This document shows positions 859-47,900 of a DNA stretch of 64,000 nt, one piece after another. Position numbers and translations under genes: made by a program. This DNA is from Pseudomonas sp. Lineage in GTDB: Bacteria > Pseudomonadota > Gammaproteobacteria > Burkholderiales > Burkholderiaceae_B. The notes beneath the pieces are model-generated. The model was not told the DNA's origin and searched no databases. It worked only from the letters and a program-made list of their open reading frames with translations. The stretch's first letter is position 1. Every line of letters starts with the position of its first letter. The stretch is taken from NCBI GenBank assembly GCA_036675275.1, contig JAKFFG010000027.1:4113-68112 (forward strand). Reading direction: 5' to 3'.

Positions 859-3800
859 TTATTGGTGTCCAGCCGTCGATGTCAGGACCGGAGCCTCGTG
901 GTGAGCGGCGGAGCGCAGTTCACCTTTGCCGATCGAACGCAGGAGCACATAGAACACCGGCGTAAGAAAGAGGCCGAACAAGGTCACTCCCAACATGCCG
1001 AAGAACACAGCCACTCCCATCGCATGACGCATCTCCGCGCCCGCTCCTGAAGAGATCACAAGCGGGACTACCCCCATGATGAAAGCGATCGAGGTCATGA
1101 GGATGGGCCGCAGGCGCAGTCGGCTGGCTTCGATCGCGGCCTTCAACGGTGTCGCGCCCTGCAGTTCGAGCTCACGTGCAAATTCAACGATCAGGATGGC
1201 GTTCTTGCAAGCCAGTCCGACCAGAACCATCAGTCCGATCTGCGTGAAGATATTGTTGTCGCCCCCCGTCAGCCACACTCCCGTGAGCGCCGCAAGAATA
1301 CTCATGGGCACGATAAGAATGACCGCCAAAGGCAATGTCAGGCTTTCGTACAGAGCGGCCAATACCAGGAACACCAGCAGCACGCTGATGGGGAATATCC
1401 AGATACCGGCATTGCCAGCCAGGATTTGCTGATAGGTCAGGTCGGTCCATTCGAACTTGACCCCGCGCGGGAGCGTCTTATCCGCAATGCGTTCGGCCGC
1501 GGCCTGCGCCTGGTCCGACGAGTACCCCGGAGCCGGACCACTGTTGATGTCGGCCGCGGTATAGCCGTTATAGCGCACCACCATCTCGGGTCCGTAAGAA
1601 GGCGTCACCTTGACCAGCGAAGACAAAGGCACCATGTCGCCGTCGCGATTTCGGGTCTTCAACTGAAGTATGTCTTCGGGTTGCGAGCGGTATGGCGCGT
1701 CGGCTTGCGCCCTTACCTGGTATACCCGGCCAAATCGATTGAAGTCGTTCACATACAAGGAACCCAGGTAGATCTGCATGGTGTCGAAGACATCTGTCAC
1801 CGGCACGCCCAGTTGCTTTGCCTTCACCCTATCCAGGTCTACGTCGAGCTGCGGCACGTTGATCTGATAACTGGAAAATGCAGGGCCCAGTTCCGGCGTC
1901 TTGCGCGCCTCTGCCAGAAATGCCTGCACCGCCACGTCGAGCTGCGCATAACCGACAGCGGCCCGGTCTTCAATCTGCAGCTTGAACCCCCCTACTGTTC
2001 CCAAGCCCATGACCGGCGGTGGCGGAAAGACGGCTATGTAGGAATCATTGATGGAGAGGTACTTTTGATTGAGGGCGGCGGCGATACCATTGGCCGACAG
2101 GTCCGCATCATCGCGCTGGTCGAATGGCTTGAGCATCACAAACACAATCCCGGCACTAGAGCTGTTCGTAAAGCCATTGATGGACAATCCGGGAAAGGCA
2201 ATGGCGCTTTCAACGCCGGGCTGCTCCAATGCGATATCGGTCATGTCGCGAATCACTTGTTCGGTCCGGTCCAGGGACGCACCGTTGGGCAATTGGGCAA
2301 AGCTGATCAGATACTGTTTATCTTGCGCCGGGACGAAGCCGCCGGGAACAACATACGAAACGCCCACCGTCGCCGCCACCAATACCAGGTACACCGCCAT
2401 CGAAGACGCCTTGCGCGAAATGACGCCTGACACTCCCCTGGCATACTGATCCGACGATCGGGCAAAGAAACGATTGAACCGCGCAAAAAAACCGCCCAAT
2501 ACCCGGTTCATTGCGCGGGTCAGCCAGTCGGGCTTTTCAGTGTGGCCCTTCAATAACAATGCCGCCAGCGCCGGCGACAGCGTCAAGGAATTGAAAGCGG
2601 AAATCACAGTGGAAATCGCTATCGTCATGGCGAATTGCTTGAAGAACTGGCCGGTGAGCCCCGTCATGAACGCCAGCGGCACGAAGACGGCCACCAGCGT
2701 CAATGCGATGGCGATGATAGGTCCGCTGACTTCCCGCATGGCGCGATACGTGGCGTCTCGGGGGGACAAGCCTTCGGCGATATTGCGCTCGACGTTTTCC
2801 ACCACAACGATGGCATCGTCCACCACAATGCCGATCGCCAGCACCAATCCGAAAAGAGACAGCGCGTTGATGGTGTACCCAAAGGCCAGCATCAAGGCGA
2901 AGGTGCCAACGATGGAGACCGGTACGGCAAGCAAGGGAATGATCGAGGCCCGCCAGGTCTGCAAGAATATGATGACCACGAGCACGACCAAAGCGACGGC
3001 TTCCAGCAGTGTCACCACAACCGCCTTGATGCTGGAACGTACAAACTGAGTGGGATCATAGGCGATACGGCTCTCGACGGACGCCGGAAAATCCGCAGAC
3101 AGTTCGTCCATGACCGCGCGAACCTGGTCGGATACCGCGAGCGCGTTGGCGCCGGGCGCCTGCATGATGCCTATTCCCACCGCCGGCTCATTATCGAGCA
3201 GGGACCTCAAGCCATACTCCGAGGCGGCAAGCTCTATGCGCGCGACGTCGCCCAGCCGGGTCACACCCCCATCCCCGGAAGTCTTGAGCACGATATCGGC
3301 AAACTCGGCTTCGGTGTGCAGGCGACCTTGCGTATTGACCGAGAGTTGCAAGGGCACATCCGGCAGCCCAGGCGACGCACCGATCACTCCGGCGGCCACC
3401 TGTACGTTCTGCTCGCGTATGGCGGCGACCACATCCGTTGCCGTAAGCCCCCGTTGCGCCACCTTCTGGGGATTCAGCCACACACGCATGGAATAGTTTC
3501 CGCCACCCCACAGCTGCACCTCGCCTACTCCCTCAATGCGAGCCAATCTGTCCTTGACGTTGAGCACCGCATAGTTGCGCAGATAGGTCATGTCATAGCG
3601 ATCATCGGGAGAGACCAGATGCACCACCATGGTCAGCGTCGGCGAGCTCTTCACCGTCGTCACGCCCAATCGCTGCACGTCTTCGGGCAGCCGAGGCAAT
3701 GCCTGCGACACGCGGTTCTGCACCAACTGCTGTGCCTTGTCGGGATCCATGCCCAGATTGAAGTGAACGGTCACTGCCAGGTTGCCATCGCTGTTGGCCT

Positions 3801-4047
3801 GCGATTGCATATAAAGCATATCCTCGACGCCGTTGATGGACTCCTCCAGCGGAGCGGCGACGGTTTCTGCAATGACCTTGGGGTTTGCTCCCGGATACTG
3901 GGCGCGCACCACGACCGAAGGCGGCACAACTTCCGGATATTCGGAAATGGGGAGCTGGAACACAGCCAACGCTCCTGCGAGCAGGATCAGGACTGACAGC
4001 ACGCCGGCAAAGATGGGCCGGTCGATAAAGAACTTGGAAATGTTCAT
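859..4047 (-). CDS. Multidrug efflux RND permease (AcrB/MexB family, HAE1)
   Basis: 1062 aa ORF with N-terminus MNISKFFIDRPIFA. It has the AcrB-like 12-TM plus two large periplasmic loop layout, and sits between MFP and OMF genes. Confidence 0.95.
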   Translation of the reverse strand: MNISKFFIDRPIFAGVLSVLILLAGALAVFQLPISEYPEVVPPSVVVRAQYPGANPKVIAETVAAPLEESINGVEDMLYMQSQANSDGNLAVTVHFNLGMDPDKAQQLVQNRVSQALPRLPEDVQRLGVTTVKSSPTLTMVVHLVSPDDRYDMTYLRNYAVLNVKDRLARIEGVGEVQLWGGGNYSMRVWLNPQKVAQRGLTATDVVAAIREQNVQVAAGVIGASPGLPDVPLQLSVNTQGRLHTEAEFADIVLKTSGDGGVTRLGDVARIELAASEYGLRSLLDNEPAVGIGIMQAPGANALAVSDQVRAVMDELSADFPASVESRIAYDPTQFVRSSIKAVVVTLLEAVALVVLVVIIFLQTWRASIIPLLAVPVSIVGTFALMLAFGYTINALSLFGLVLAIGIVVDDAIVVVENVERNIAEGLSPRDATYRAMREVSGPIIAIALTLVAVFVPLAFMTGLTGQFFKQFAMTIAISTVISAFNSLTLSPALAALLLKGHTEKPDWLTRAMNRVLGGFFARFNRFFARSSDQYARGVSGVISRKASSMAVYLVLVAATVGVSYVVPGGFVPAQDKQYLISFAQLPNGASLDRTEQVIRDMTDIALEQPGVESAIAFPGLSINGFTNSSSAGIVFVMLKPFDQRDDADLSANGIAAALNQKYLSINDSYIAVFPPPPVMGLGTVGGFKLQIEDRAAVGYAQLDVAVQAFLAEARKTPELGPAFSSYQINVPQLDVDLDRVKAKQLGVPVTDVFDTMQIYLGSLYVNDFNRFGRVYQVRAQADAPYRSQPEDILQLKTRNRDGDMVPLSSLVKVTPSYGPEMVVRYNGYTAADINSGPAPGYSSDQAQAAAERIADKTLPRGVKFEWTDLTYQQILAGNAGIWIFPISVLLVFLVLAALYESLTLPLAVILIVPMSILAALTGVWLTGGDNNIFTQIGLMVLVGLACKNAILIVEFARELELQGATPLKAAIEASRLRLRPILMTSIAFIMGVVPLVISSGAGAEMRHAMGVAVFFGMLGVTLFGLFLTPVFYVLLRSIGKGELRSAAHHEAPVLTSTAGHQ

Positions 4048-4062
4048 GAGAGTTCTGTCGGT

Positions 4063-5295
4063 TCAGGAGTTATCAATAGATTCGGACGGATGTGCACCTG
4101 ATGCGGCGATTCTCGGAGGCTCGGTTGCCAATACCGGCCGAGGTGTGACCACATCGCCCGGCCGAATGCGTTGCAGGCCGCTGACAACGATGCGCTCTCC
4201 CGCTTTCAAGCCTGCTTCGACCACGCTCCAGCCCTTCCTGCTGGTTCCAAGATGAACCTCCCGATATTCAGTCTTGTTGCTCTCGCCCACAACCACGACG
4301 AAGCGCTTGTTCTGATCGGTGCCTATCGCCCTATCGTCGACCAGCACGGCCTCGTGCGGCGCGCCCCCGCCCAGCCGAATACGGGCGTAAAGACCCGGCA
4401 CCAAGGAACCATCAGGGTTATCGAAGACCGCGCGCACTCGTATGGTTCCCGATGATGTGTCCATCGTGTTGTCGACGGAGGCCAATGTTCCAGGACGAGG
4501 ATAGTTCTCCTCGTTGGCCAAACCCAGGTGTACGGGAACTGCGGCATCACCGGAGACGCGCGCCGGATTCACGAACTTCAGAAAGCTCTGCTCATCGACG
4601 TCGAACGAGGCATAAAGCCGGGACACCGAAACCAGGGTGGTCAAGGGCGTCGAGCCGGCGCCGGCCGCCACGACATTGCCCGGCGTCACTTCCGCGCGCG
4701 ACACCCGTCCTGAAATGGGAGCGACGATACGTGTGTGTTCGAGGTTCAATTGCGCCGATTCCAGCCTTGCCTTAGCCGCCTGCAGATCGGCAACGGCGCT
4801 GCGCGACGCATTGCGCTTCTCTTCATAGTCTCGCCGGGCAATGGCGTTGTTATCCAACAGCCGTTTCCCCCGGGCAAGATCCGACCCTGTATACGCGACC
4901 CGCGCTTGCGCTGAGACTACCTGGGCTTTGGCATGATCCACCGCCGCCCGGTACGGCCTGGGATCTATGGTGAACAGCACATCGCCCTTCTGAACCTGGC
5001 TTCCGTCCGTAAAATGAACCTGCGTCAACGTACCTGAGACCAAGGGACGGACAACGATCTCATCGACGGCCTCGAGCCGACCTGAAAAGTAATGCCAATC
5101 GGTAACGGTCTGACTATCGACCGTCGCAACGTCCACGGTAACCGCTGGCATAGCCGGAGCCGCCGTGGACTCCTGAGCCGATCCAGCATAAACGCGAAAA
5201 ACGGCGACACCCCCGATCAGAGCCGCGGCGGCAATGGCCAGCGCGGCGTATCGATTGCGTAGTAGAAACATGGTAGTCCTTGTGTTGCTGATCAT
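4063..5295 (-). CDS. RND efflux membrane fusion protein (AcrA/MexA, HlyD_D23 family)
   Basis: 410 aa with an N-terminal membrane anchor and coiled-coil/lipoyl/beta-barrel MFP-like sequence (e.g. VVRPLVSGTL, IVAPISGRVS). It lies immediately upstream of the RND permease. Confidence 0.9.
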   Translation of the reverse strand: MISNTRTTMFLLRNRYAALAIAAAALIGGVAVFRVYAGSAQESTAAPAMPAVTVDVATVDSQTVTDWHYFSGRLEAVDEIVVRPLVSGTLTQVHFTDGSQVQKGDVLFTIDPRPYRAAVDHAKAQVVSAQARVAYTGSDLARGKRLLDNNAIARRDYEEKRNASRSAVADLQAAKARLESAQLNLEHTRIVAPISGRVSRAEVTPGNVVAAGAGSTPLTTLVSVSRLYASFDVDEQSFLKFVNPARVSGDAAVPVHLGLANEENYPRPGTLASVDNTMDTSSGTIRVRAVFDNPDGSLVPGLYARIRLGGGAPHEAVLVDDRAIGTDQNKRFVVVVGESNKTEYREVHLGTSRKGWSVVEAGLKAGERIVVSGLQRIRPGDVVTPRPVLATEPPRIAASGAHPSESIDNS

Positions 5296-5505
5296 GCCGG
5301 AAGTTGAAAATGAGTCGTCGAATTCCTACATTTTTCAAGCCGGCATAGAAATTCTGGAAATGAGCGGGTATTATTTACTTTTCGCAGAGACAGATAAATA
5401 CGCGTTTTCTGCCTACACTATTCGTCAATTTCCAACAATGCAGCCCCGTGTTTGGGTCATGGACACTCACACTTGGCTGCGAACATCATTTCAAGGAAGA
5501 GCACG

Positions 5506-6522
5506 ATGGATCGCTTCCAGGCTATGCAGGTCTTCACACGGGTCGTGGACGCGAACAGCTTCACACTGGCCGCGGATATGCTCGGCCTGCCGCGGGCCAC
5601 CGTAACGACCACGATCCAGGGACTGGAACGCCTGCTGAAGGTGCGGTTGCTGAACCGCACCACCCGCCGGCTGAGCCTCACGCCCGATGGCGCGGCATAT
5701 TACGATCACTGTGTACGAATACTCGCCGACATAGAAGACGCGGAGGCGTCGTTTCACGACGTGACCCGAGGTCCGAAAGGCCGGCTGCGCATCGACACGC
5801 CGCCGTCCATCGGACGGCTGATACTGCTGCCCGCCTTATGCGAATTTCATGAGCGCTACCCCGACATTGAGCTGGCGATCGGAATGAGCGACAGGCCGGT
5901 CGACATGGTGCAGGAAGCCGTGGACTGCGTGATCAGGGTGGGCGAGCTGCAGGATTCAAGCATGGTCGCCAAACGGATAGGAACATTCGAAAGCATCACA
6001 TGCGCCGCGCCGTCATACCTGGAGCGCCACGGTGAACCGCAAACCATAGAAGAATTGAACGGCCACCGTGCCGTTCACTATTTTTCCGGGCGCAGCGGAA
6101 GAAATATGGACTGGAGCTTCACAGTGGATGGGCGAGTCACGGAAGTCGCCGTCCAGGGAGCCGTGTCGGTCAACGACGCGGAGGCTTATGTGACCTGCGG
6201 CTTGAAGGGATTTGGCATGATACAGCCGGCGCGATATATGGTTGCGGCCCACCTGGAATCGGGAGCGCTGCGGGAAATCCTGCCCGCATGGAAGCCTCAG
6301 CCCATGCCCATCTCGGTGGTCTACCTGCACAACCGTCATCTGTCGCCCAAGGTGCGGGTTTTCGTCGACTGGATAAGCGAACTGTTCCAACGCTGCCCCT
6401 TGCTGGGCGAGTGCGGGTTGGGCATGGCAAGCGCAGAAGAATGCCGGTTCGCAGGCCGGCATGCGTCCAATACCATACGGGAAATAATGGAACGCGAACA
6501 TGTGAAGGAAAGTATCTTCTGA
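5506..6522 (+). CDS. LysR-family transcriptional regulator, divergent from the efflux operon
   Basis: The ATG at 5506 is preceded by AAGGAAGAG. The N-terminus MDRFQAMQVFTRVVDANSFTLAADMLGLPRATVTTTIQGLE is a typical LysR wHTH, followed by a C-terminal substrate-binding domain. Confidence 0.9.
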   Translation: MDRFQAMQVFTRVVDANSFTLAADMLGLPRATVTTTIQGLERLLKVRLLNRTTRRLSLTPDGAAYYDHCVRILADIEDAEASFHDVTRGPKGRLRIDTPPSIGRLILLPALCEFHERYPDIELAIGMSDRPVDMVQEAVDCVIRVGELQDSSMVAKRIGTFESITCAAPSYLERHGEPQTIEELNGHRAVHYFSGRSGRNMDWSFTVDGRVTEVAVQGAVSVNDAEAYVTCGLKGFGMIQPARYMVAAHLESGALREILPAWKPQPMPISVVYLHNRHLSPKVRVFVDWISELFQRCPLLGECGLGMASAEECRFAGRHASNTIREIMEREHVKESIF

Positions 6523-6582: not shown

Positions 6583-7989
6583 ATGAACGTAGCGATCATC
6601 GGCACCGGCTATGTCGGCCTGGTTACCGGCGCATGCCTTGCCGAAGCAGGAAACAACGTCACTTGCATTGACAATAACGACGAGAAAATAGCCGGACTTC
6701 GCGCGGGCACCGTGCCGTTTCACGAACCCTTGCTCGACGCGGTCGTACTTCAGGCAAGCATGAAAGGAACGCTACAGTTCACAAGCAGATTGGCCGAAGG
6801 CACACTCCATGCCGAAATTATCTTCCTGGCGCTGGGGACTCCCGCCGGCATCGACGGTTATGCAAATACTGGGGCCTTGCTGCAATGCGCGCAGGATCTT
6901 GCAGCAGTCTTGCAGCACGATTGCCTTGTCGTCATCAAATCAACAGTCCCGCCTGGAACTTGTGAAGACATCCAGGCGCTTTTCGACACAACGCTCGTGC
7001 GCCGAACAGCGGACTTCCGGATCAAAGTCGCCTCCAATCCCGAATTTTTAGCCGAGGGTACCGCTGTAAGCGATTTCCGCAGGCCCGCGCGAATCGTGGT
7101 CGGCGCGTCGGACGAAGCTGACTCCGGGATACTCAGGCAACTCTATGCACCCTTCGATCCGGATGGCACCCGTCTGATTGAAATGGATCTTCGATCTGCG
7201 GAGTTCGCCAAGTATGCATGCAACGCGATGCTGGCGGCGCGAATTTCCATGATAAACGAACTGGCCAATATCGCAGGCCGTCTGGGCGCAGATATCGGAC
7301 CAGTATGCCAGGTGCTGAAGTCGGATCCGAGGATAGGGCCCCGTTATCTGGAACCTGGCGCCGGCTACGGTGGATCCTGCCTGCCGAAAGATTTGCATGC
7401 CCTCATTCGCATGGCCCGGGACAAGGGCGAACCCGCTCCCATGCTCACTAGTATTGATCAGGTGAATCGGCGCCAGGTAAAGCTCATCTTCAAAGCGATA
7501 GAGAAATACTTCTGGGGACGCTTCAAGGGCCGATGTGTTGCCATCTGGGGGCTCGCCTTCAAAGCGGGAACCGACGACATTCGGGAAGCGCCCAGTCTTG
7601 CGCTGATTCAAGGGCTTCTTGACGCCGGCGCCAAAGTGCGGGCCTACGATCCCATCGCCGAATCGGCCGTCGCGTCAACGTTCAAGCACCCCGACCTGGT
7701 CCTTGCAGCCAGCGCCGAACAAGCCTGCCTGGATGCCGACGTGCTCGTTGTGATGACGGAATGGGAAGAGTTCATCACGCCCGATTTCAAATGGCTGGCA
7801 TCCACGTTGCGCTCACCTGCCATTTTCGATGCGCGCAACCTTTACAACGATAAAGACTTGAAGTCTCTGGGTTTACGCCACTACCGGCCCGGACGGACAT
7901 TCCCCGCACAGACGACACCCAGGACTCTGTGGACACAAGCACCGCTGCGGAGGGACGATGCCGCGCCGGTCCGGCAACAGCATGGGTGA
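6583..7989 (+). CDS. ugd: UDP-glucose 6-dehydrogenase
   Basis: 468 aa with the Rossmann motif IIGTGYVGL and catalytic Cys context GGSCLPKD. It has the UDPG/GDP-mannose dehydrogenase family layout. Confidence 0.9.
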   Translation: MNVAIIGTGYVGLVTGACLAEAGNNVTCIDNNDEKIAGLRAGTVPFHEPLLDAVVLQASMKGTLQFTSRLAEGTLHAEIIFLALGTPAGIDGYANTGALLQCAQDLAAVLQHDCLVVIKSTVPPGTCEDIQALFDTTLVRRTADFRIKVASNPEFLAEGTAVSDFRRPARIVVGASDEADSGILRQLYAPFDPDGTRLIEMDLRSAEFAKYACNAMLAARISMINELANIAGRLGADIGPVCQVLKSDPRIGPRYLEPGAGYGGSCLPKDLHALIRMARDKGEPAPMLTSIDQVNRRQVKLIFKAIEKYFWGRFKGRCVAIWGLAFKAGTDDIREAPSLALIQGLLDAGAKVRAYDPIAESAVASTFKHPDLVLAASAEQACLDADVLVVMTEWEEFITPDFKWLASTLRSPAIFDARNLYNDKDLKSLGLRHYRPGRTFPAQTTPRTLWTQAPLRRDDAAPVRQQHG

Positions 7990-8071: not shown

Positions 8072-10822
8072 TCAGCGTACTGGCTTATCCGTAGACGCCC
8101 CGATGCGCGTCACTGCCAGGATAGTGGCCAGAAGTTCTCTCGGGTCCACCGGCTTGCCCACATGAACCTGGAATCCGGCCAGCAATGCGCGCAAGCGGTC
8201 TTCCCTTTCACTGTAGCCGGACAGCGCAATGGCGGGCAGGCGTTCCGCCAACGATAAACCGCGTTGCGCCTCGAGTTTGCGGATATCGGTAATTACCTGA
8301 TATCCGTCCGGTTCGCCCAGCGATATATCGCATACGAGTACATCCGGCCATTGGGGCCGCGCGCTTTCGTGCAATCGCGATAAGAGTGACCCTCCGGAGT
8401 CGAATACTTCCACTTGCGCGCCGTGGTCCTGAAGAACGGCGGCCAGCAATTCCCTGGCTTCTTGCTGGTCGTCCGCAACGAAAATGCGAACGCTTTGCAG
8501 GACGTGGTCCAGCTCTTGCGCAACCGGCGTCGCCGGCGCCAGCGATGCGACAGCCCGTAGCGGCAGCCGGATGGAGAATGTCATTCCGGAACCGTCGCTT
8601 GCAGGCCTCACGTCGAAGCTGCCGCCCATCTGCTCCAGCATCGCGGTCACCGCCAACGGATCCAGCAAATGCGACAATCTCACCGGCTGCGATTCGTCCA
8701 CAGCGGCCGGAGCAGTATCCGACGAAGTCAGGCGTCCGTCGGTCACTGAAATGAGCGCCGCCCCTTCCGAGCGTTCCAGCCGCAACTCAAGGCGTCCGCC
8801 GGACGGCGTGAAAGCGATCGCGTTATCCAGCACATCGCATACGAGTTGCTGCAATGCGCTGGGATCACCCGTGACACGCAGGGTGTCCGTGCTGATCAGC
8901 GGATACAGCACTATTCCCTGGGACTCGCTGGCCGGACGCATCGCATCCAGCACACCGGCCACCAGAGCCACGAGATTCACCGGTTGAGCGCTCAGCCGGG
9001 ATCCGGATTCATCCAGTTCGTTTTGCTGCCGTTGCAAATGCCACATCTGGGCATACAAGCCTTTGGCACGCAGCAGATCCGCGTGCGAACCACGCTCGAC
9101 AATGCAGCCGTGATCCATGACCAGTATCGTGTCGGCATTCACTATCGTGGACAGTCTATGGGCGATGATCAATGTGCTTCTGCCCTGCGCAAGACGGTCG
9201 AGTTCCTCCTGAATAGCACGCTCTGTGCGGGTATCCAGCGCCGACGTTGCCTCGTCGAAGATAAGCAGGGGCGGATTCTTCAGTACCGCGCGGGCAATGG
9301 CAATGCGCTGCCGTTCGCCCCCGGAGAGCTTCACCCCGCGTTCGCCCACCATGGTTTCATATTGGGCCGGCAAGCTCTGGATCAATTCGTGAATCCGGGC
9401 GGCCTTGGCCGCCTCAATAACATCGGCGGGCGTGGCGCCAACCCGGCCATAGGCGATGTTGTATGCAATCGTATTGTTGAACAGCAGAGAGTCCTGCGGC
9501 ACCACCCCTATCATGGACCGCAGGCTTTTCTGGCTGACCGAGCGTACGTCCTGGCCATCCACTTCGATACTCCCGCCATCAACGTCATAAAAATGCAGCA
9601 GCAGGCGAGCCAGCGTGGACTTGCCCGAACCGCTACCCCCCACCACTGCAACGGTCGCCCCCGGCTCGATGCGGAAATCCACCCCGTGCAGTATCTGGCG
9701 TCCCGGCTCGTAGGAGAAGTCGACCTTGGCAAACTCGACGGCGCCACCGCTGAAGCGCAATGCAGGCAGAACTTCCGCAGGATCGGATTCAGGCGGATAA
9801 CGCAAAAGCTCGGACATCCGTTCGGCGTTGATCAGCGCCTCGCGCGCCTGCCGAAAGCTGAGACCCAGTGTATTCAGCGGCAGGCAGACCTGTATTACAT
9901 AGGCGTTGACCAGTATAAGATCGCCGACCGCCATGTTTCCGCTGACCACTTCCTGGCCGGCCAACAACATTATCGCGGCAACGCCAAACGCAATGATCCC
10001 GCTTTGCCCCACGTGCAGAACCGACAGGGCTCGCTGGTTATCCACCCCTATGCCTATCCATTTCTTCATGATGTCGCGCAAGCGTTGCGACTCGACTTGG
10101 TCGCTGGCATAGAACTTCACCGTTTCATAATTGAGCAGACTATCGACCAGATGGCCATTGGCCGCGGAGTCCAGTTCATTCAGCTGCCGCTGGTACAGCG
10201 TACGCCTTTCAGTGAAGACGACGGTGAATATCGCATAGATGACAAAAGTGGCCAGCACGATGGCCGCGAATCCGAAGTGGTAAGCCATCATCATAATGAC
10301 CACGACGGAGACGATCTCGATCAGGGTGGGCAATACCGTAAACAGTGCAGTACCCAATAAGAAGCCGATGCCGGCTGTGCCCCTTTCCACATCGCGCGAT
10401 AGAACGCCTGTCTGCCGGCCGCCAAGGAACTTCACGCCCAGGCTATGCAGATGATCGAACATGCGCACGGTAAAGTCCGCAACTGCCGTTTGGGTAACGC
10501 GGGCAAAGACCAGGTCGCGCAGTTCCGTGAACAAGCCGGACGAGAAGCGCAGCAAGGCATAGCCTATCAGGAGAAAAACCGGCAACGTCAGTGTTGCGGA
10601 GCTTGAATCCAATGTATCTACGATGCGCTTGAGGGCGACCGGCACCAGGACCGCCAACAGCTTTGCCGCAATGAGCAAGACCAGGGCCGCAGCCGCGCGG
10701 CGCCTGAATCGCCATAAAACCTGGCCTACGGTCTTGAAAATTTCACGGCGCGCAAACACCGATGTCCCCGCATCACCGGTTCCGGAGCGAGTCGAATGCG
10801 GATCGCTGGCCGAGCCTTCCAT
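8072..10822 (-). CDS. ATM1/HMT1-type ABC exporter (TMD+NBD) fused to a HATPase_c-like domain and a CheY-like receiver domain
   Basis: Single uninterrupted ORF. Transporter motifs are Walker A GGSGSGKST, signature LSGGERQR, Walker B LLIFDEATSALD and IIAHRLS. It continues into an N-box-like LVCDVLDNAIAFTPSGG ...GMTFSIRLPL, then a receiver (VADDQQ, VLVCDISLGEPDG, ALSGY, HVGKP). The ATG at 10822 with GAGGA 5 nt upstream is preferred over the TTG at 10834. Confidence 0.85.
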   Translation of the reverse strand: MEGSASDPHSTRSGTGDAGTSVFARREIFKTVGQVLWRFRRRAAAALVLLIAAKLLAVLVPVALKRIVDTLDSSSATLTLPVFLLIGYALLRFSSGLFTELRDLVFARVTQTAVADFTVRMFDHLHSLGVKFLGGRQTGVLSRDVERGTAGIGFLLGTALFTVLPTLIEIVSVVVIMMMAYHFGFAAIVLATFVIYAIFTVVFTERRTLYQRQLNELDSAANGHLVDSLLNYETVKFYASDQVESQRLRDIMKKWIGIGVDNQRALSVLHVGQSGIIAFGVAAIMLLAGQEVVSGNMAVGDLILVNAYVIQVCLPLNTLGLSFRQAREALINAERMSELLRYPPESDPAEVLPALRFSGGAVEFAKVDFSYEPGRQILHGVDFRIEPGATVAVVGGSGSGKSTLARLLLHFYDVDGGSIEVDGQDVRSVSQKSLRSMIGVVPQDSLLFNNTIAYNIAYGRVGATPADVIEAAKAARIHELIQSLPAQYETMVGERGVKLSGGERQRIAIARAVLKNPPLLIFDEATSALDTRTERAIQEELDRLAQGRSTLIIAHRLSTIVNADTILVMDHGCIVERGSHADLLRAKGLYAQMWHLQRQQNELDESGSRLSAQPVNLVALVAGVLDAMRPASESQGIVLYPLISTDTLRVTGDPSALQQLVCDVLDNAIAFTPSGGRLELRLERSEGAALISVTDGRLTSSDTAPAAVDESQPVRLSHLLDPLAVTAMLEQMGGSFDVRPASDGSGMTFSIRLPLRAVASLAPATPVAQELDHVLQSVRIFVADDQQEARELLAAVLQDHGAQVEVFDSGGSLLSRLHESARPQWPDVLVCDISLGEPDGYQVITDIRKLEAQRGLSLAERLPAIALSGYSEREDRLRALLAGFQVHVGKPVDPRELLATILAVTRIGASTDKPVR

Positions 10823-10840
10823 AATAGTCCTCAAGCAATT

Positions 10841-11740
10841 TTATGGCGGAGTCATATCGGCGCCATTCTCTGATTCCTTTTCAGCCGAGACGCGCGAGCC
10901 GTATCGGCGCGCATACGCCCAGGTGAATTCAGCACCCAGGAGAAACACCTGGGCGGCGTAGTACACCCAGATCAATACCATTACCAAGGAGCCCGCCGCC
11001 GTGAGCGAGGAGATCGTGGAGCTCTTGCCGACGTAAAGCGCGATGAGAGCCTTGCCCACCTCAAACAGAACAGCAGTCACGAAGGCGCCCACCCATACAT
11101 CGCGCCAGTCTATCTTCGCCTGCGGCATGAACTTATAGATCATCGCGAACAGTACGGTGGCAATCCCCAGCGAAACGACAGCATTGATGACCTGTAGCAA
11201 AAGCTCCCATCCCGGGAACAAGCCGGTGGACCACTGGCCCAATGCCGCCAGGGCGGCGCTCAGGATCAAGGACACGAGCAACAGGAACGCCAGACCCAGA
11301 ACGAGGCCGAAGGAAAGCAGGCGGGCGCGCAACGTCGCCAATATGCCGGTCTTTGCCGTCGCCGGTACCCTCCATATACGATCCAGGGCACTTTGCAACT
11401 CTGCAAATACCGTGGTCGAACCGACAACCAATACGATTACGCTGAAGAGCGTAGCGGTAACGCCCTGCGCGGGTTTGTCGGCGCTCTTGATCAGATTCTG
11501 CACTCCCGATGCACTTTCGGTGCCGACCATGCCTCCAATCTGACGTATGATTTCTCCACGCACCGCCTCTTCGCCCCACACAAAGCCGGCGACAGCGATA
11601 ACGATGATCAGGAGGGGTGCGATGGAAAAAGTCGTGTAGAAAGCAATGGCTGCACCCATGCTGGAAGCGCGGTCATCCTGCCAGGCCGCCACCGACTCTT
11701 TGCCCAATTGAAAAAATTCCTTTACACGCATCCCGGGCAT
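10841..11740 (-). CDS. YihY/BrkB (virulence factor BrkB / former RNase BN) family inner-membrane protein
   Basis: 299 aa. The sequence WQDDRASSMGAAIAFYTTFSIAPLLI plus about 6 TM segments is characteristic of YihY. Its stop lies 18 nt before the ABC fusion start. Confidence 0.85.
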   Translation of the reverse strand: MPGMRVKEFFQLGKESVAAWQDDRASSMGAAIAFYTTFSIAPLLIIVIAVAGFVWGEEAVRGEIIRQIGGMVGTESASGVQNLIKSADKPAQGVTATLFSVIVLVVGSTTVFAELQSALDRIWRVPATAKTGILATLRARLLSFGLVLGLAFLLLVSLILSAALAALGQWSTGLFPGWELLLQVINAVVSLGIATVLFAMIYKFMPQAKIDWRDVWVGAFVTAVLFEVGKALIALYVGKSSTISSLTAAGSLVMVLIWVYYAAQVFLLGAEFTWAYARRYGSRVSAEKESENGADMTPP

Positions 11741-11755
11741 CCTTTCAACGCGCCA

Positions 11756-12265
11756 TCACGACTTATCCAGATCGGGCGCGTCCCGTTGTGCCAAAGCGCG
11801 CCCCTTGGCGACGGCCTTAAGGCAATGGGCAATGGTTGCGGCAAACGCTTCGTCATACCAGGGGTTGGCACCGCTGACGCCGACCACAATCCCCTCAATG
11901 GCCACGCCGCCCCAGATCCCGCAGTCGCCTGCCTGCAATAGATGAGGCAGCACATGGCGCACAGTATGCCCGTCACGGCCGGTGCGCCAGCATACCTTCG
12001 CCTTGTCACGCGCGAAGCGGGCATAGTCGGCGTCCCATTTGTCCTGATCGCCGATGGCATGTTCATAAAGAATTGCGTCGTCGAACTCGCTGACCGAAGG
12101 ATCCAGACCCGGATCCATGATGACGATGTAAAGAAAACCGCTCTCCCCGACAGTTGCGTTATGTACACCCTGCTCGAGCATCGGAAGAGCCAGATTGACG
12201 GCCTGCCTGGCCGCATCCTGATCTGCAAAGTAACTGCCCGAAGCCCGCTGTCGCCCTGAATTCAT
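11756..12265 (-). CDS. GlcG/HbpS-like (DUF336) putative heme/cofactor-binding protein
   Basis: The ATG at 12265 is preceded by GGGAGG. The C-terminal GGVAIEGIVVGVSGANPWYDEAFAATIA resembles the GlcG motif GG.P....G.IGAVGVSG. No signal peptide is seen. Its stop lies 15 nt before yihY. Confidence 0.55.
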   Translation of the reverse strand: MNSGRQRASGSYFADQDAARQAVNLALPMLEQGVHNATVGESGFLYIVIMDPGLDPSVSEFDDAILYEHAIGDQDKWDADYARFARDKAKVCWRTGRDGHTVRHVLPHLLQAGDCGIWGGVAIEGIVVGVSGANPWYDEAFAATIAHCLKAVAKGRALAQRDAPDLDKS

Positions 12266-12387
12266 CAATTTGCCTCCCATTCGCCTTACGGTTTGGCGCT
12301 GGAAGGAGCACAGCAAGCGGCATGCCGCCGACAATTTCGTCGACGGAAAGCTACCCAAATTCACCCTTATCGTGTTCAATATGCTCC

Positions 12388-44072: not shown

Positions 44073-44107
44073 GACAATATAGTACCGTTTCGGTACTATA
44101 TTGTCAA
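44073..44107 (-). promoter_or_regulatory. Near-consensus sigma70 promoter overlapped by a perfect 15-3-15 palindrome (candidate Rrf2 operator) upstream of rrf2-suf
   Basis: The minus strand reads TTGACA-aatatagtaccgaaacgg-TACTAT (17-nt spacer). The palindrome GACAATATAGTACCG-TTT-CGGTACTATATTGTC at 44073-44105 spans from -35 to -10. The -35 overlaps the stop codon of the upstream ABC gene. Confidence 0.6.
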
Positions 44108-45921
44108 ACTGCGGAATCTTGCTCTGCCTGGCTTGGCCGGTCCGGATCCTGGCCACTTTGCTGCAAGTTCCACATCTGGGCATACCGACCGGCCTGGGCA
44201 ATCAAATCCCGGTGGGAACCGCGCTCAAGAACCCTTCCGTGATCCAGAACAATGATTTCGTCCGCCTCCACGATCGTGGAAAGGCGATGAGCGATGATCA
44301 GCGTGGTGCGGTCCTTGGCCACCTGGCGCAGCTCGTCCTGAATCACCCTTTCGGTGCGTGTGTCGAGCGCGCTGGTCGCCTCGTCCAGTATCAGGATGGG
44401 CGGATTCTTCAGGACCGTGCGCGCGATGGCAACGCGCTGCTTTTCACCACCCGACAATTTCAGGCCCCGTTCACCGACTTGAGTCTGATAGGCGTCCGGC
44501 AGGTTCATGACAAAGTCGTGAATGCTCGCGGCCTTGGCTGCCTGGACAATTTCCTGCTCTGACGCGTCCGGATTTCCATACGCGATGTTGTACAGGATGC
44601 TGTCGTTGAACAGGACGGTATCTTGCGGAACGATTCCGATATGCCGCCGCAGGCTGGCCTGGGTCAGGTCTCGAATGTCGACGCCATTAATCGTGATCGA
44701 GCCGGAATTGACATCGTAGAAACGGAACAGCAATCTGGACAGGGTCGATTTCCCGGCACCGGAAGATCCCACTACGGCCAATGTCTTGCCCGCGGGTATC
44801 GAGAAGCTCACATCAAACAGAATCTGGCGGTTTGATTCATAGCCGAATTCCACATTATTGAAGCGGATTGCCGCCTGCGATGTACACAATTCCGTGGCAG
44901 CCGGACGGTCGGCCACTTCCTGGCCCTGCTCCATCAGGCCGAACATGCGCTCCATATCAGCCAGCGCATGCTTTATCTCGCGATATACAAAGCCCAGGAA
45001 ATTGAGCGGCGCATACAACTGCGTGAGATAGGCCGAAACCAGTACGACATCGCCTACCGACATAGTCTTGCTCACCACTCCCTGCGCCGATAGCCAAAGC
45101 AGCAAGGTAACGCCGGTCGTAATGATGACGCCCTGCCCCATGTTCAGGAAGTTGAGCGACACCTGGTTCTTGACGGCCGAATCCACCCATTTCCCCAGAT
45201 TGCTGTCGTAGCGATCCAGCTCGTAACCCTCGTTGCCGAAGTATTTCACCGTCTCGTAATTGATCAGGGCATCGATGGCTTTGCTGTTGGCCTTGCTGTC
45301 CAGGTCGTTCATGCTGCGGCGATAGACCATCCGCTTCTCGGTCACCACCAGGGTAAACGCAATATACGCGGCGATCGTGCCTAGGGTCACGACAGCAAAG
45401 CGCCAATCGTAGCGCCACAGCAAAATGGCAGTCACCATGCCGATTTCCAGCAGGGTCGGCAAGATATTGAACACCATGAAATTGAGCAGAAAACCTATGC
45501 CCTTGGTGCCGCGTTCGATATCCCTGCTCAAGCCTCCCGTCTGCCGCTGCATATGAAAGCGCAGCGACAAGGCAAACAGATGTTTGAACAATTGGGCCGC
45601 AATACGGCGTATGGACCCTTGCGTGACACGCGCAAACAGCGCATCGCGCAGCTCTCCGAAGACGCTGGACGCCAGGCGCGCAAAGCCATACCCCAGCAAC
45701 GCGGCCACCGGAAGCACGAGCAAAGTGCCCGGCAAGCTGAGTTTGTCGACGATGTCTTTCAAGAACAGAGGCAGGATTACGCTGGCGACCTTGGCAGCCA
45801 CCAGACAGGCCAAGGCCGCAGCCACGCGCCGCTTGAACTGCCATACATAAGGCAGCAGCGACCTTATCGTCTTTATATCGTCCCGCCCCCCGGGCGCAGA
45901 TCCACGGTGACTCATTTTCAT
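44104..45921 (-). CDS. ATM1/HMT1-type ABC exporter (fused TMD-NBD half transporter)
   Basis: About 605 aa with Walker A GSSGAGKST, LSGGEKQRVAIAR, ILILDEATSALD and IIAHRLS. It is a paralog of residues ~36-600 of the fusion at 8072-10822. Its start ATG at 45921 forms an ATGA overlap with the upstream acyltransferase stop. Confidence 0.9.
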   Translation of the reverse strand: MKMSHRGSAPGGRDDIKTIRSLLPYVWQFKRRVAAALACLVAAKVASVILPLFLKDIVDKLSLPGTLLVLPVAALLGYGFARLASSVFGELRDALFARVTQGSIRRIAAQLFKHLFALSLRFHMQRQTGGLSRDIERGTKGIGFLLNFMVFNILPTLLEIGMVTAILLWRYDWRFAVVTLGTIAAYIAFTLVVTEKRMVYRRSMNDLDSKANSKAIDALINYETVKYFGNEGYELDRYDSNLGKWVDSAVKNQVSLNFLNMGQGVIITTGVTLLLWLSAQGVVSKTMSVGDVVLVSAYLTQLYAPLNFLGFVYREIKHALADMERMFGLMEQGQEVADRPAATELCTSQAAIRFNNVEFGYESNRQILFDVSFSIPAGKTLAVVGSSGAGKSTLSRLLFRFYDVNSGSITINGVDIRDLTQASLRRHIGIVPQDTVLFNDSILYNIAYGNPDASEQEIVQAAKAASIHDFVMNLPDAYQTQVGERGLKLSGGEKQRVAIARTVLKNPPILILDEATSALDTRTERVIQDELRQVAKDRTTLIIAHRLSTIVEADEIIVLDHGRVLERGSHRDLIAQAGRYAQMWNLQQSGQDPDRPSQAEQDSAV

Positions 45922-47900
45922 GCGGCGGGTTCCTCCAGGAACTTGATGATCTGCTCCATCCACTTCTGCGACACTTCGCGCGAACCGTCGATTGAAAGAT
46001 GCGACGTATCGGAATACCTGACGTTCTGACCGCCCATGGCCGAACAAACGCCATTCGCGCACAGGGCATCATAGGGATCCAGGAAAAGCACACGTGGATT
46101 TGCGCTGAACGCGCTGGCCAGTTGTTGGTTCAACTCATATCCCAGCCCCTGTACTGGCGGCAGTTCCAAAGACCGCAGACAAATCATGGGCACATAATCG
46201 GGACGCTCGAGACAGGCACTGGCACTGCCGACCGCGCGTATGCCGGGCTGATTGCCTATCACAATGAGCTTGCGCCGCGGATTGTCGGCAACGAGATCCT
46301 GGACATTCGCAACAAGGAAGCGGCCATAGTCGGCGGAACTGGAGAATTCCAGTCGGGTGCCGTCGGGGCGCGCCAGGAGCCGCCGGTACCCCGTCCAGCT
46401 CATGGCATAGACCAAGGGAAGATCATTACCCTTCAACAAGGCCTGCAGTCGCCCGGTGGTATCAAGGCAATCCTGGCGCGGCCGGCCGGCAAGCAGCCGC
46501 GTAACATCGCGGCCCAGTATGCAGCCGTGCCGGAACACGCCCTGCATGCTGACTCCTTTCTTTGCCAGCCAATAGTCGAAACCGGCAGCGTACTGCAAGG
46601 CAAAACTGTCGCCTGCGAAAATGGCCAATGGCTTGCCGGTCGCCGCATCCCCCAGCACCGCATCAAGCGCGTAGCCTTCGCCGCCGAAAAGACCGGCCTG
46701 CATGACCATTCGGTCGGCTACCCGGTCTCTATACTGGTCGTTGACCCTGAACGGCAAACCATGTTGGTAATAAACGTAAGCGCTTGGCGCGAGCACCAGG
46801 GCAACAAGCGCCGCACAGGACACAGCCTTGACGCCGCTCCAGCTTGCAAGATCGACTTTCCGGTACCGGCGCTCCACCCAGCGATACATGGGATAGGCCA
46901 CCACAAATGGCACAGCGAACAATAACGCCTTGTCCCAGAATTGCAGAGGACGATAGACATGATATTTGTAGAAAACGATGATCGGCCAATGCACCAGATA
47001 CAGCGAATATGAGACCAGGCCAATAAACACGGCAACACGGTTACGCAACAGAACGCCTAGATAGCGCGCACGTCCCGCATAGATGCACAGTGCCGCGCCA
47101 ACCACGGGGACCAAGGCGTTCACCCCCGGAAACACGGTATTGCTGTCAAACGCCAGTACGCTATAGACCAGTAACAGCAGACCGGTGGCCAAAAGGCCCT
47201 CCTGCACTCTGTTTGCCGGCATGATACGGCGCTCCAGCCAGGGCAGCAAACCGCCCGCGGCAAACTCGAACATCCGGAACGGCATAAGGAAATAGTTTGC
47301 GGACGGATCGAGCACCGTAAACCATTGGGATGCCGCAAGGGAAACGACGCCCGCCAACAGTATGCCCCAGGGCAGCCGTGCTGGCCGCCATCGCCAAACC
47401 CCATAAATAATTAATGGCCAAATCAGATAAAACTGCTGTTCGACCCCCAACGACCATGTATGGAGCAGCGGATTCAATTCCGACGACGTATCGAAATAGC
47501 CCGCCACCTGCCAGAAAACCACATTGGACGCCGAGAAGAAGCTGGCAACGGTGGAGGCAGCCAGCGTCCGATACTGGGTCGGATCGAAAAACACAAAACC
47601 CGCAACCATGACCAGCAGCAAGGTCGCGATAAGCGCCGGATACAAGCGTACCACCCGCCTGGCCATGAACGGCAGCAGGCGGAAGGTTCCACGCTCGCAA
47701 TCCGAATGGATGATCTGCGTAATGAGATAGCCGGAGATCACGAAGAAAACGTCCACCCCGACAAAGCCTCCCGCAAATGGGGCGAAACCGGCATGGAAAA
47801 GCAGCACGCTTATGACAGCGAAAGAACGAAGGCCGTCGACTTCGGGACGATAGGACTTGGACATTGCCGTCGCCACGGCAGAGGGAGGACTACCAGACAT
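45918..47900 (-). CDS. Acyltransferase-3 (OafA/YrhL-like) membrane O-acyltransferase with C-terminal SGNH domain
   Basis: 660 aa. YRPEVDGLRSFAVISVLLFHAG is the AT3 N-terminal motif, followed by about 10 TM segments and a C-terminal GDS motif (IFAGDSFA). Confidence 0.85.
   Translation of the reverse strand: MSGSPPSAVATAMSKSYRPEVDGLRSFAVISVLLFHAGFAPFAGGFVGVDVFFVISGYLITQIIHSDCERGTFRLLPFMARRVVRLYPALIATLLLVMVAGFVFFDPTQYRTLAASTVASFFSASNVVFWQVAGYFDTSSELNPLLHTWSLGVEQQFYLIWPLIIYGVWRWRPARLPWGILLAGVVSLAASQWFTVLDPSANYFLMPFRMFEFAAGGLLPWLERRIMPANRVQEGLLATGLLLLVYSVLAFDSNTVFPGVNALVPVVGAALCIYAGRARYLGVLLRNRVAVFIGLVSYSLYLVHWPIIVFYKYHVYRPLQFWDKALLFAVPFVVAYPMYRWVERRYRKVDLASWSGVKAVSCAALVALVLAPSAYVYYQHGLPFRVNDQYRDRVADRMVMQAGLFGGEGYALDAVLGDAATGKPLAIFAGDSFALQYAAGFDYWLAKKGVSMQGVFRHGCILGRDVTRLLAGRPRQDCLDTTGRLQALLKGNDLPLVYAMSWTGYRRLLARPDGTRLEFSSSADYGRFLVANVQDLVADNPRRKLIVIGNQPGIRAVGSASACLERPDYVPMICLRSLELPPVQGLGYELNQQLASAFSANPRVLFLDPYDALCANGVCSAMGGQNVRYSDTSHLSIDGSREVSQKWMEQIIKFLEEPAA

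Follow-up and report, generated by a model that had tools for sequence, protein, structure and literature searches.

An ABC exporter fused to a DHp-less, degenerate histidine-kinase catalytic domain and a canonical receiver: a candidate output of two-component signalling in Burkholderiales

Introduction

Control of bacterial ABC exporters is generally ascribed to transcription or to their substrate. ABC exporters regulated by phosphorylation of an appended module include CFTR, which carries an R domain, and Rv1747, which carries FHA domains, and HlyB keeps a dead C39-like domain (CLD) for a non-catalytic role. Among histidine kinases and their relatives, the plant subfamily-2 ethylene receptors ETR2 and EIN4 contain a degenerate histidine-kinase domain followed by a canonical receiver, and DivL has a dimerisation and histidine-phosphotransfer (DHp) domain in which Tyr replaces His. 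DivL of Caulobacter (PDB 4q20) is a pseudo-histidine kinase that serves as a scaffold or senses a phosphorylated receiver. In Pseudomonas aeruginosa, RetS (PDB 6dk7/6dk8/7n0e) combines a catalytic (CA) domain, which has degenerate G1 and G2 boxes and has lost ATP binding, with functional receiver(s) in phosphate traffic, and mutation of two G2 glycines abolishes ATP binding in GacS (PMC8498467). On the transporter side, the C-terminal helices of Atm1 contact their twin, limit the separation of the nucleotide-binding domains (NBDs), and rearrange on NBD closure (PMC8694623). Here, we describe a 920-residue protein encoded in a 64,000-nucleotide stretch of contig JAKFFG010000027.1 of Pseudomonas sp. 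(assembly GCA_036675275.1, placed in Burkholderiales by GTDB; the whole stretch is referred to as the window, and all coordinates of the gene are those of the window), in which an ABC exporter is followed by a kinase-like CA domain and a receiver. We propose, with the chances of being right or wrong about equal, that the exporter is the output of a phosphorelay: its receiver would be phosphorylated in trans, the dead CA domain would act as a structural adaptor, and the NBD cycle would be biased as a result.

Architecture of the Fusion Protein

The gene occupies 8072..10834 on the minus strand, as delimited from the list of open reading frames (ORFs), Pfam matches, and homologues, and starts with TTG at 10834, four codons upstream of an ATG. 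Pfam assigns ABC_membrane to residues 50-316, ABC_tran to 382-531, HATPase_c to 656-760, and Response_reg to 784-905, and no match to HisKA was found anywhere in the 920 residues. The domain order is transmembrane domain (TMD), NBD, NBD C-terminal helix, CA (Bergerat) fold, disordered linker, and canonical receiver (REC). The span of 8120-8992 (minus strand) addressed by the original prediction encodes residues 615-905, exactly the CA-like domain and the receiver, which together are termed the tail below. Databases label the fusion simply as an "ATP-binding cassette domain-containing protein."

The exporter part is complete. The TMD (residues 45-340; 9815..10702, minus strand) belongs to the type IV ABC exporter fold, matches ABC_membrane (PF00664) with 118.6 bits, and shows long transmembrane helices in the AlphaFold2 (AF2) model. 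The NBD (residues 365-592; 9059..9742, minus strand), assigned by a PF00005 match of 116 bits, invariant columns, and alignment with Ste6, ABCB1, and MsbA, is the best conserved region of the protein, with a mean pairwise identity of 0.69. Its motifs are intact, comprising Walker A (GGSGSGKST), the signature LSGGE, Walker B and the D-loop, the H-loop residue H559, and the generic GxHxxLL residue H584; furthermore, G399-T407, LSGGE at 503-507, D527/E528, and H559 are invariant in 93 sequences. The ABC core matches NaAtm1 end to end (4mrn; E 2.4e-142), together with AtAtm3, ABCB7, and ABCB6, and the gene product is, judged from its sequence, a homodimeric Atm1/MsbA-like half-transporter with an intact ABC exporter. 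The best NCBIfam equivalog is MsbA_lipidA, with 393 bits against a cut-off of 602, and all other equivalogs also score below their cut-offs; therefore, the substrate of the transporter is not assignable by homology.

Joint Between the NBD and the CA-Like Domain

The original prediction stated that the DHp/HisKA segment and the H-box are absent from the protein, and this is borne out by the lack of a HisKA match, by the profile alignment, and by the structure of the joint. Ordinary ABCB exporter homology (Ste6, ABCB1, NaAtm1, MsbA) extends through the C-terminal helix of the NBD to residue ∼612. This helix (residues 593-611, LYAQMWHLQRQQNELDESG; 9002..9058, minus strand), located by the AF2 model and the ABCB alignment, is the sole helix linking the NBD to the CA-like domain and contains no conserved His. 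From the 104 nearest intact kinases we built a DHp+CA profile in which the H-box falls at position 26; the query is matched by profile positions 85-249 only, corresponding to residues 613-769, and in 133 family sequences or fragments no real alignment to the profile begins before position 66. With ABC homology reaching residue ∼612 and CA homology taking over at residue 613, no space is left for a DHp domain or an H-box, nor is any residue unassigned. The point at which ABC homology stops and kinase CA homology starts in the profile alignment is a short junction, SRLSA, at residues 612-616 (8987..9001, minus strand).

In the AF2 model, the single helix 593-611 runs into a β-strand at 617-620, with no helical hairpin between them, and the distance from residue 601 to residue 620 is fixed at 19 residues in 118 of 121 sequences. 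No conserved His was found within residues 585-670 in 121 sequences, the H599 of the query being variable (Ala in 30, Asn in 24, and Ser in 17 sequences, among others). A cryptic H-box helix in the linker was looked for and none was detected; the two candidate residues, H559 of the ABC H-loop and H584 of the generic ABCB motif GxHxxLL, were rejected as unrelated to kinases. Pfam, the profile, the AF2 model, and His conservation agree that a DHp hairpin with a phospho-His is missing. Foldseek alignments to DHp-CA cores exceed the CA domain alone by 25-45 columns, which in the models is consistent with the NBD C-terminal helix lying where DHp α2 would lie. Likewise, the fixed 19-residue joint continuing the C-terminal helix is consistent with the NBD dimer taking the place of DHp and the CA domain serving as a spacer, a possibility raised at the outset from the sequence alone.

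Degeneration of the CA Domain

The degenerate histidine-kinase catalytic domain of the Bergerat/GHKL fold, hereafter CA*, spans residues 617-760 (8555..8986, minus strand), as defined by HATPase_c, AF2, and Foldseek. HATPase_c gives 33.2 bits (cut-off 26.4), compared with 108-112 bits in intact relatives. The AF2 models reach a predicted local distance difference test (pLDDT) score of 85 for the whole protein and 88.6 for the tail alone, and exceed 90 in the core of CA*; the Bergerat fold is confident, and the former ATP lid is its only disordered part. Foldseek matches of CA* include ShkA, CusS, DivL, YycG, RetS, and HK853 (E 1e-10 to 1e-15), and RetS and DivL are also among the phmmer matches of the tail.

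By contrast with intact kinases, in which the first N-box Asn (100%), the N-box Lys (99%), the Phe (99%), and both G1 glycines (100%) are retained, the fusions have lost all of these residues. In the N-box helix remnant (residues 658-675, PSALQQLVCDVLDNAIAF; 8810..8863, minus strand), assigned by alignment and column comparison, D667 stands in place of the first Asn and A674 in place of the Lys. The query still has the Mg-ligand Asn, N671, in a column that contains Asn in 55, His in 51, and Ser in 9 of 121 homologues. The G1 remnant VTDGRLT (residues 697-703; 8726..8746, minus strand) aligns as "TD-GRLT" with "sDtGkGi" of the profile; both glycines of DxGxG are gone, a pattern absent from all ABC fusions, and the adenine-binding Asp is retained as D699 (Asp in 109 and His in 10 family members). 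The former ATP lid (residues 700-723; 8666..8737, minus strand), recognised by its AF2 model, length, and identity, is disordered and hypervariable: it has no F-box and no secondary structure, shows pLDDT values of 52-60, and ranges from 14 to 55 residues in the family. No segment of the fusions is less conserved than the lid (pairwise identity 0.09), whereas in the intact kinases no segment is more conserved (0.65). At the G2 position (residues 724-733; 8636..8665, minus strand), LDPLAVTAML replaces GxGLGLaiv, with "GGlGlGLaiv" of the profile standing opposite "HLLDPLA-V," and neither an F-box nor a G2 box is found. The replacement is itself conserved in the family as "LDP" (D725 in 115/121 and P726 in 107/121), and the query retains the GG737-738 pair.

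The reading by eye of VTDGRLTSS and LDPLAVTAML as degenerate G1 and G2 boxes without the ATP-lid glycines was reproduced by the profile alignment, which returned the same strings and no intact boxes elsewhere, and agrees with a lid that evolves like a linker. Beyond that reading, the query itself keeps N671 and D699, each of which is lost in some family members. Because of these motif losses, together with the precedents of the GacS G2 mutant and of RetS, whose CA domain is similarly degenerate, we strongly infer that CA* would have lost both kinase activity and ATP binding.

Nevertheless, CA* is not decaying. It is the least conserved folded domain of the protein, and its core identity (0.38/0.28) is above that of the CA*-REC linker (0.19), its core is modelled with pLDDT >90, its fold is recovered in structural matches, and the length of its joint to the NBD is fixed. 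No family-specific invariant residue gained in the CA* core relative to intact kinases passed our filter, and a passive adaptor therefore fits better than a new binding site.

Two groups of orthologues show further variation in this domain. In the Azoarcus clade (Azoarcus indigens P0120, locus L003; P0109), the G1 Asp is changed to His, the N-box Asn to Arg, and the lid is cut to 14-15 residues, with the receiver still canonical, making these proteins a natural "minimal" version of the CA remnant. The Ralstonia orthologues (L029, L067) comprise 1007-1056 residues, and their tail alignment breaks past the CA core, which suggests a large insertion in the lid or the linker.

Linker and Receiver

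CA* is connected to the receiver by a flexible linker (residues 761-781; 8492..8554, minus strand), evident from the AF2 model, its length, and its low identity: pLDDT is below 50 for residues 762-771, and the segment measures 25-47 residues from R760 to D788 in the family. The receiver (residues 782-908; 8111..8491, minus strand) matches PF00072 with 64.6 bits and forms a (βα)5 fold, with strands and helices at residues 783-908 modelled at pLDDT >90; moreover, CA and REC of ShkA could be aligned together with the tail over 305 columns. It contains the acidic pair D788/D789, the phospho-acceptor D836 (codon 8327-8329), S872, K894-P895, and H891 at the switch position. The receiver had been described from the sequence as fully canonical, and the homologues agree: among 121 of them, D836 is present in 121, D788 in 117, D789 in 115, Ser or Thr at 872 in 120, and K894 in 116, i.e., 95-100% for all five catalytic residues. 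Conservation of the five residues, yet with no His donor in cis, is consistent with a receiver that would be phosphorylated in trans.

Distribution and Origin of the Family

We identified 120 full-length homologues (∼900 residues) with the same architecture, most of which are not flagged as HATPase_c; no truncated, tail-less orthologue was found among these 120 closest homologues. A word-indexed search with the 163-residue CA segment gave five fragments, and an exhaustive search of representatives was used instead. A scan of species-representative genomes placed the fusions in about 45 species, mainly Burkholderiales, covering Alcaligenaceae, Sphaerotilaceae/Comamonadaceae, Burkholderiaceae, Rhodocyclales, and Solimonas, with Bordetella, Achromobacter, Cupriavidus, and Ralstonia among the genera. 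One protein from an Acidobacteriota metagenome-assembled genome (P0128) also carries the ABC fusion. Further acidobacterial fusions in Pyrinomonadaceae were considered and rejected, the genome-scan matches being intact hybrid kinases and P0128 the only fused protein from Acidobacteriota.

In the exhaustive search, the nearest non-fusion relatives of the tail (35-42% identity) are PAS-HisKA-HATPase_c-REC hybrid kinases; over CA and REC, such kinases are 33-42% identical to it. These proteins (P0132, P0135, P0137, and the Pyrinomonadaceae loci L043-L064) have related CA and REC domains; in contrast to the fusion, they have both DHp and H-box, the spacing between their N, G1, F, and G2 boxes, all intact, does not vary, and there is no ABC module. 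Judged by this similarity, PAS-type hybrid kinases are the probable donor lineage of the tail. The fusions are monophyletic (33/33) on a neighbour-joining tree, which rests mainly on residues 617-699 after hmmalign --trim had cut away much the greater part of the fusions' C-terminal CA core, and whose midpoint root, between the fusions and all kinases, does not show the source kinase clade. The simplest history compatible with the sequences would be that a CA-REC segment, severed from its kinase at the DHp/CA boundary, was captured once and afterwards lost its ATP site. In the species-representative genomes, the tail finds its closest intact relatives among hybrid kinases of Pyrinomonadaceae (Acidobacteriota) and not of Betaproteobacteria (L043, L049, L050, L051, L053, L057, L059-L061, L064, L073, and L080), which hints that the CA-REC segment or the donor kinase lineage may have moved between phyla.

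Gene Neighbourhood

A gene for a BrkB/YihY-family membrane protein (10841..11740, minus strand; PF03631, 165.6 bits), which has the same neighbour relation in Pollutimonas sp. M17, ends 6 nucleotides upstream of the start codon of the fusion, and the two genes are therefore likely to be co-transcribed. Just upstream of it lies a gene for a protein of ∼175-200 residues (11756-12379, minus strand) that recurs near the fusion in 10 other loci (cluster 5). Pfam returned nothing at E ≤ 1 for this recurrent 175-residue neighbour, and its C-terminal "GGVAIEGIVVGVSG" motif resembles GlcG/HbpS-type proteins by eye only. On the other side, the convergent neighbour encodes UDP-glucose 6-dehydrogenase (6583..7989, plus strand) and recurs beside the fusion in 5 other loci (cluster 11).

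Among 41 fusion loci, the neighbours include carbamoyltransferase (18 loci), GT9 (17), HAD-like phosphatase (13), Glycos_transf_1 of the GT1 type (13), GT4 (12), NAD-epimerase (10), GT2 (9), and SDR (8). Recurring stress-type neighbours are BON, PRC-barrel, DUF892, DUF421, catalase, and trehalase. A near-identical cluster is found beside the fusion in Bordetella bronchiseptica and Azoarcus indigens (L001 10898-18706 and L003 43-7777), comprising GT4, SDR, HAD-like phosphatase, GT9, carbamoyltransferase, GT2, and GT9 genes plus BON and PRC-barrel genes, and parts of it recur in many other genera (18/41 fusion loci). This cluster resembles a lipopolysaccharide-core-type glycan pathway with its own MsbA-like flippase.

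Several other observations concern the surroundings of the fusion. In Cupriavidus plantarum (L032 2797-6909), the fusion lies 1.2 kb downstream of a gene for a 1370-residue CheB-CheR-PAS-HisKA-HATPase_c-REC protein, an unusual methylesterase/methyltransferase-kinase fusion and a candidate phosphodonor. A PAS-hybrid kinase likewise neighbours the fusion in Methyloversatilis (L030). The window contains a second ABCB-type exporter ORF of ordinary length (44107-46068, minus strand), ∼43% identical to the ABC core of the L031 fusion; on this identity, it would appear to be a paralogue without a tail, encoded in the same region of the genome. Furthermore, a resistance-nodulation-division (RND) pump of 1062 residues, a membrane-fusion protein, and a divergent LysR regulator are encoded at 859-5295 (minus strand) and 5452-6522 (plus strand), a region syntenic with Pollutimonas sp. 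M17 (91% and 73% identity), by which the window is assigned to the genus Pollutimonas/Pusillimonas or its vicinity.

Functional Model and Alternatives

In the model that we propose, an Atm1/MsbA-like exporter would have captured the CA-REC end of a PAS-type hybrid kinase at the DHp/CA boundary, leaving the phospho-His hairpin behind. The CA domain would then have lost ATP binding and kinase activity and would persist as a folded adaptor, rigidly attached to the NBD C-terminal helix, while a flexible tether would carry a receiver that still accepts phosphate. With no His donor in cis, D836 would be phosphorylated in trans by a separate kinase, a histidine phosphotransfer (Hpt) protein, or acetyl phosphate. 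As CA* continues a helix that in Atm1 contacts its twin and moves, dimerisation or undocking of the receiver would be well placed to bias the NBD cycle; phosphorylation, probably acting via receiver dimerisation or release of a contact, may alter the approach of both C-terminal helices and NBDs and thereby turn export up or down, the exporter being a direct output of a two-component pathway. The likely cargo would be a stress-related, lipid-linked or carbamoylated glycoconjugate made by the accompanying glycosyltransferase cluster. A more specific version, which we regard as possible and on balance rather doubtful, is that the fusion represents a new class of response regulator with an ABC exporter as its output domain, in which a stress kinase or Hpt protein acting on D836 would, by way of the CA remnant and the C-terminal helix, gate the NBD cycle and switch on the export or flipping of a carbamoylated heptose-type glycoconjugate.

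Several points weigh against this proposal. Phosphorylation, its donor, and its effect on transport are all things that we infer. The 64-kb window contains no other kinase or receiver detectable by profile scans of ORFs of at least 80 residues, although divergent kinases and Hpt proteins could escape such scans. A kinase is found within 10 kb of the fusion in just 6 of the 41 loci, four of them bearing PAS-hybrid kinases of the sister subfamily, and no partner kinase or Hpt is conserved nearby; on these grounds, a conserved adjacent partner kinase was rejected. The glycosyltransferase cluster is absent from the window, where only UDP-glucose dehydrogenase is adjacent, and the cargo is therefore borrowed from orthologues. 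The interdomain geometry is unreliable in the monomer models (predicted template modelling score, pTM, 0.59-0.66). Furthermore, since N671 and D699 are kept, this particular orthologue may conceivably bind nucleotide weakly.

The alternative that survives best, which we nonetheless judge unlikely, reverses the direction of the signal. The transporter would do the sensing and the receiver would serve as a phosphate sink or relay node, with the transport cycle exposing or hiding D836 through the C-terminal helix and CA*; at the same low likelihood, substrate flux would drain or return phosphoryl groups of a stress phosphorelay, like RetS-GacS siphoning or Bce-type flux-sensing. The receiver derives from those of hybrid kinases, whose usual role is to exchange phosphate with Hpt or DHp domains and not to drive outputs, and the RetS receiver siphons phosphate from GacS (PMC8498467). 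The long flexible tether would let the receiver reach external partners, and the stress-gene neighbourhood fits a regulatory node. However, no downstream Hpt, response regulator, or kinase is conserved near the fusion in the 41 loci, and the NBD and TMD are best conserved, with all ABC motifs intact, as in a working pump, which could still sense. Coupling is, in either direction, putative.

It is somewhat less likely again that CA* is a docking platform for the DHp domain of a separate kinase, a split transmitter being rebuilt in trans and the receiver placed beside a foreign phospho-His; on this view, CA* would have been kept to recognise a partner and not to act as a spacer. Such a docking role was suggested by the original prediction, and a precedent exists in PA1611-RetS, in which the β-sheet of the dead CA domain contacts the DHp of the other kinase, as reported by way of a citation in PMC8498467. 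The CA core is kept above linker identity, and hybrid kinases of the same subfamily adjoin the fusion in 4 loci. These points are set against a CA core that, compared with intact kinases, has gained no family-specific invariant residue to support a new binding site, the lowest conservation of any folded domain in the protein, and a neighbourhood that does not conserve a partner kinase; docking by CA* is predicted only.

Binding of nucleotide or a small ligand in a remodelled pocket, by which CA* would act as an energy or metabolite sensor like ADP-binding GHKL domains that work without His phosphorylation, appears improbable. Although the Bergerat fold is intact in AF2 and Foldseek comparisons and the query retains N671, D699, and GG737-738, over half of the family has His, Ser, or Arg in place of N671, and the Azoarcus clade, whose lid is down to 14-15 residues, has His in place of D699. 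With no Lys, F-box, G1 glycines, or G2 left and an unconstrained lid, ligand binding cannot be the conserved function of the domain. Finally, that the tail is a functionless relic heading for loss, as decayed catalytic motifs and the low conservation of CA* might suggest, is very improbable, being contradicted by a monophyletic fusion kept in about 45 species representatives of several families, by a receiver with all five catalytic residues 95-100% conserved, by a joint of fixed length, and by the lack of any tail-less truncated orthologue among the 120 closest homologues.

Significance and Comparison With Known Systems

The fusion is of interest mainly because direct control of a pump by a two-component pathway could be tested with it. 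If phosphorelay control of the exporter is correct, a pump with a built-in phospho-receiver would provide a fast and direct link between two-component signalling and membrane export, and a bacterial ABC exporter would be under direct, post-translational two-component control. A kinase catalytic domain deprived of its substrate helix and of its ATP site would have found a second use as a mechanical adaptor, and the protein would offer a natural system in which to see how an added module influences NBD dimerisation by way of the C-terminal helix. It would also be a clean case, in kinase evolution, of a CA domain that survives without DHp and ATP binding and that can be compared with intact sister kinases. 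The envelope-glycan and stress gene context in Bordetella, Achromobacter, Cupriavidus, and Ralstonia may bear on envelope remodelling in opportunistic pathogens.

A search of the full-text literature found no description of an ABC exporter that bears a receiver and a dead CA domain lacking DHp, which is not proof of novelty. Atm1, NaAtm1, ABCB7, ABCB6, and MsbA share the TMD-NBD core with the fusion end to end, including the C-terminal helix, but have no kinase-like or receiver domain and end shortly past that helix. CFTR, Rv1747, and HlyB differ from the fusion in relying on Ser/Thr phosphorylation or a peptidase remnant, in the domain families involved, and in the positions of the appended modules. 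ETR2 and EIN4 share the order of a degenerate kinase domain and a canonical receiver with the tail; unlike the fusion, they are eukaryotic, retain a DHp-like dimerisation region, and carry a membrane ethylene-binding domain and no ABC pump. DivL matches the tail in sequence and fold, but has neither a fused receiver nor a transporter. RetS, which is among the top sequence and fold matches of the tail, shares with it a degenerate CA domain together with receiver function; however, RetS keeps a DHp domain with the conserved His, acts via DHp-DHp contact with GacS, and is a sensor, not a transporter. By its motifs, the tail would resemble the CA-REC end of RetS-type pseudo-kinases; it lacks the DHp domain and the N, G1, and G2 boxes that define a histidine kinase, whereas the protein does have the hallmarks of a receiver and of an ABC exporter. 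The fusion combines known kinds of protein, namely pseudo-histidine kinases, receiver-controlled effectors, and ABC exporters with appended regulatory domains.

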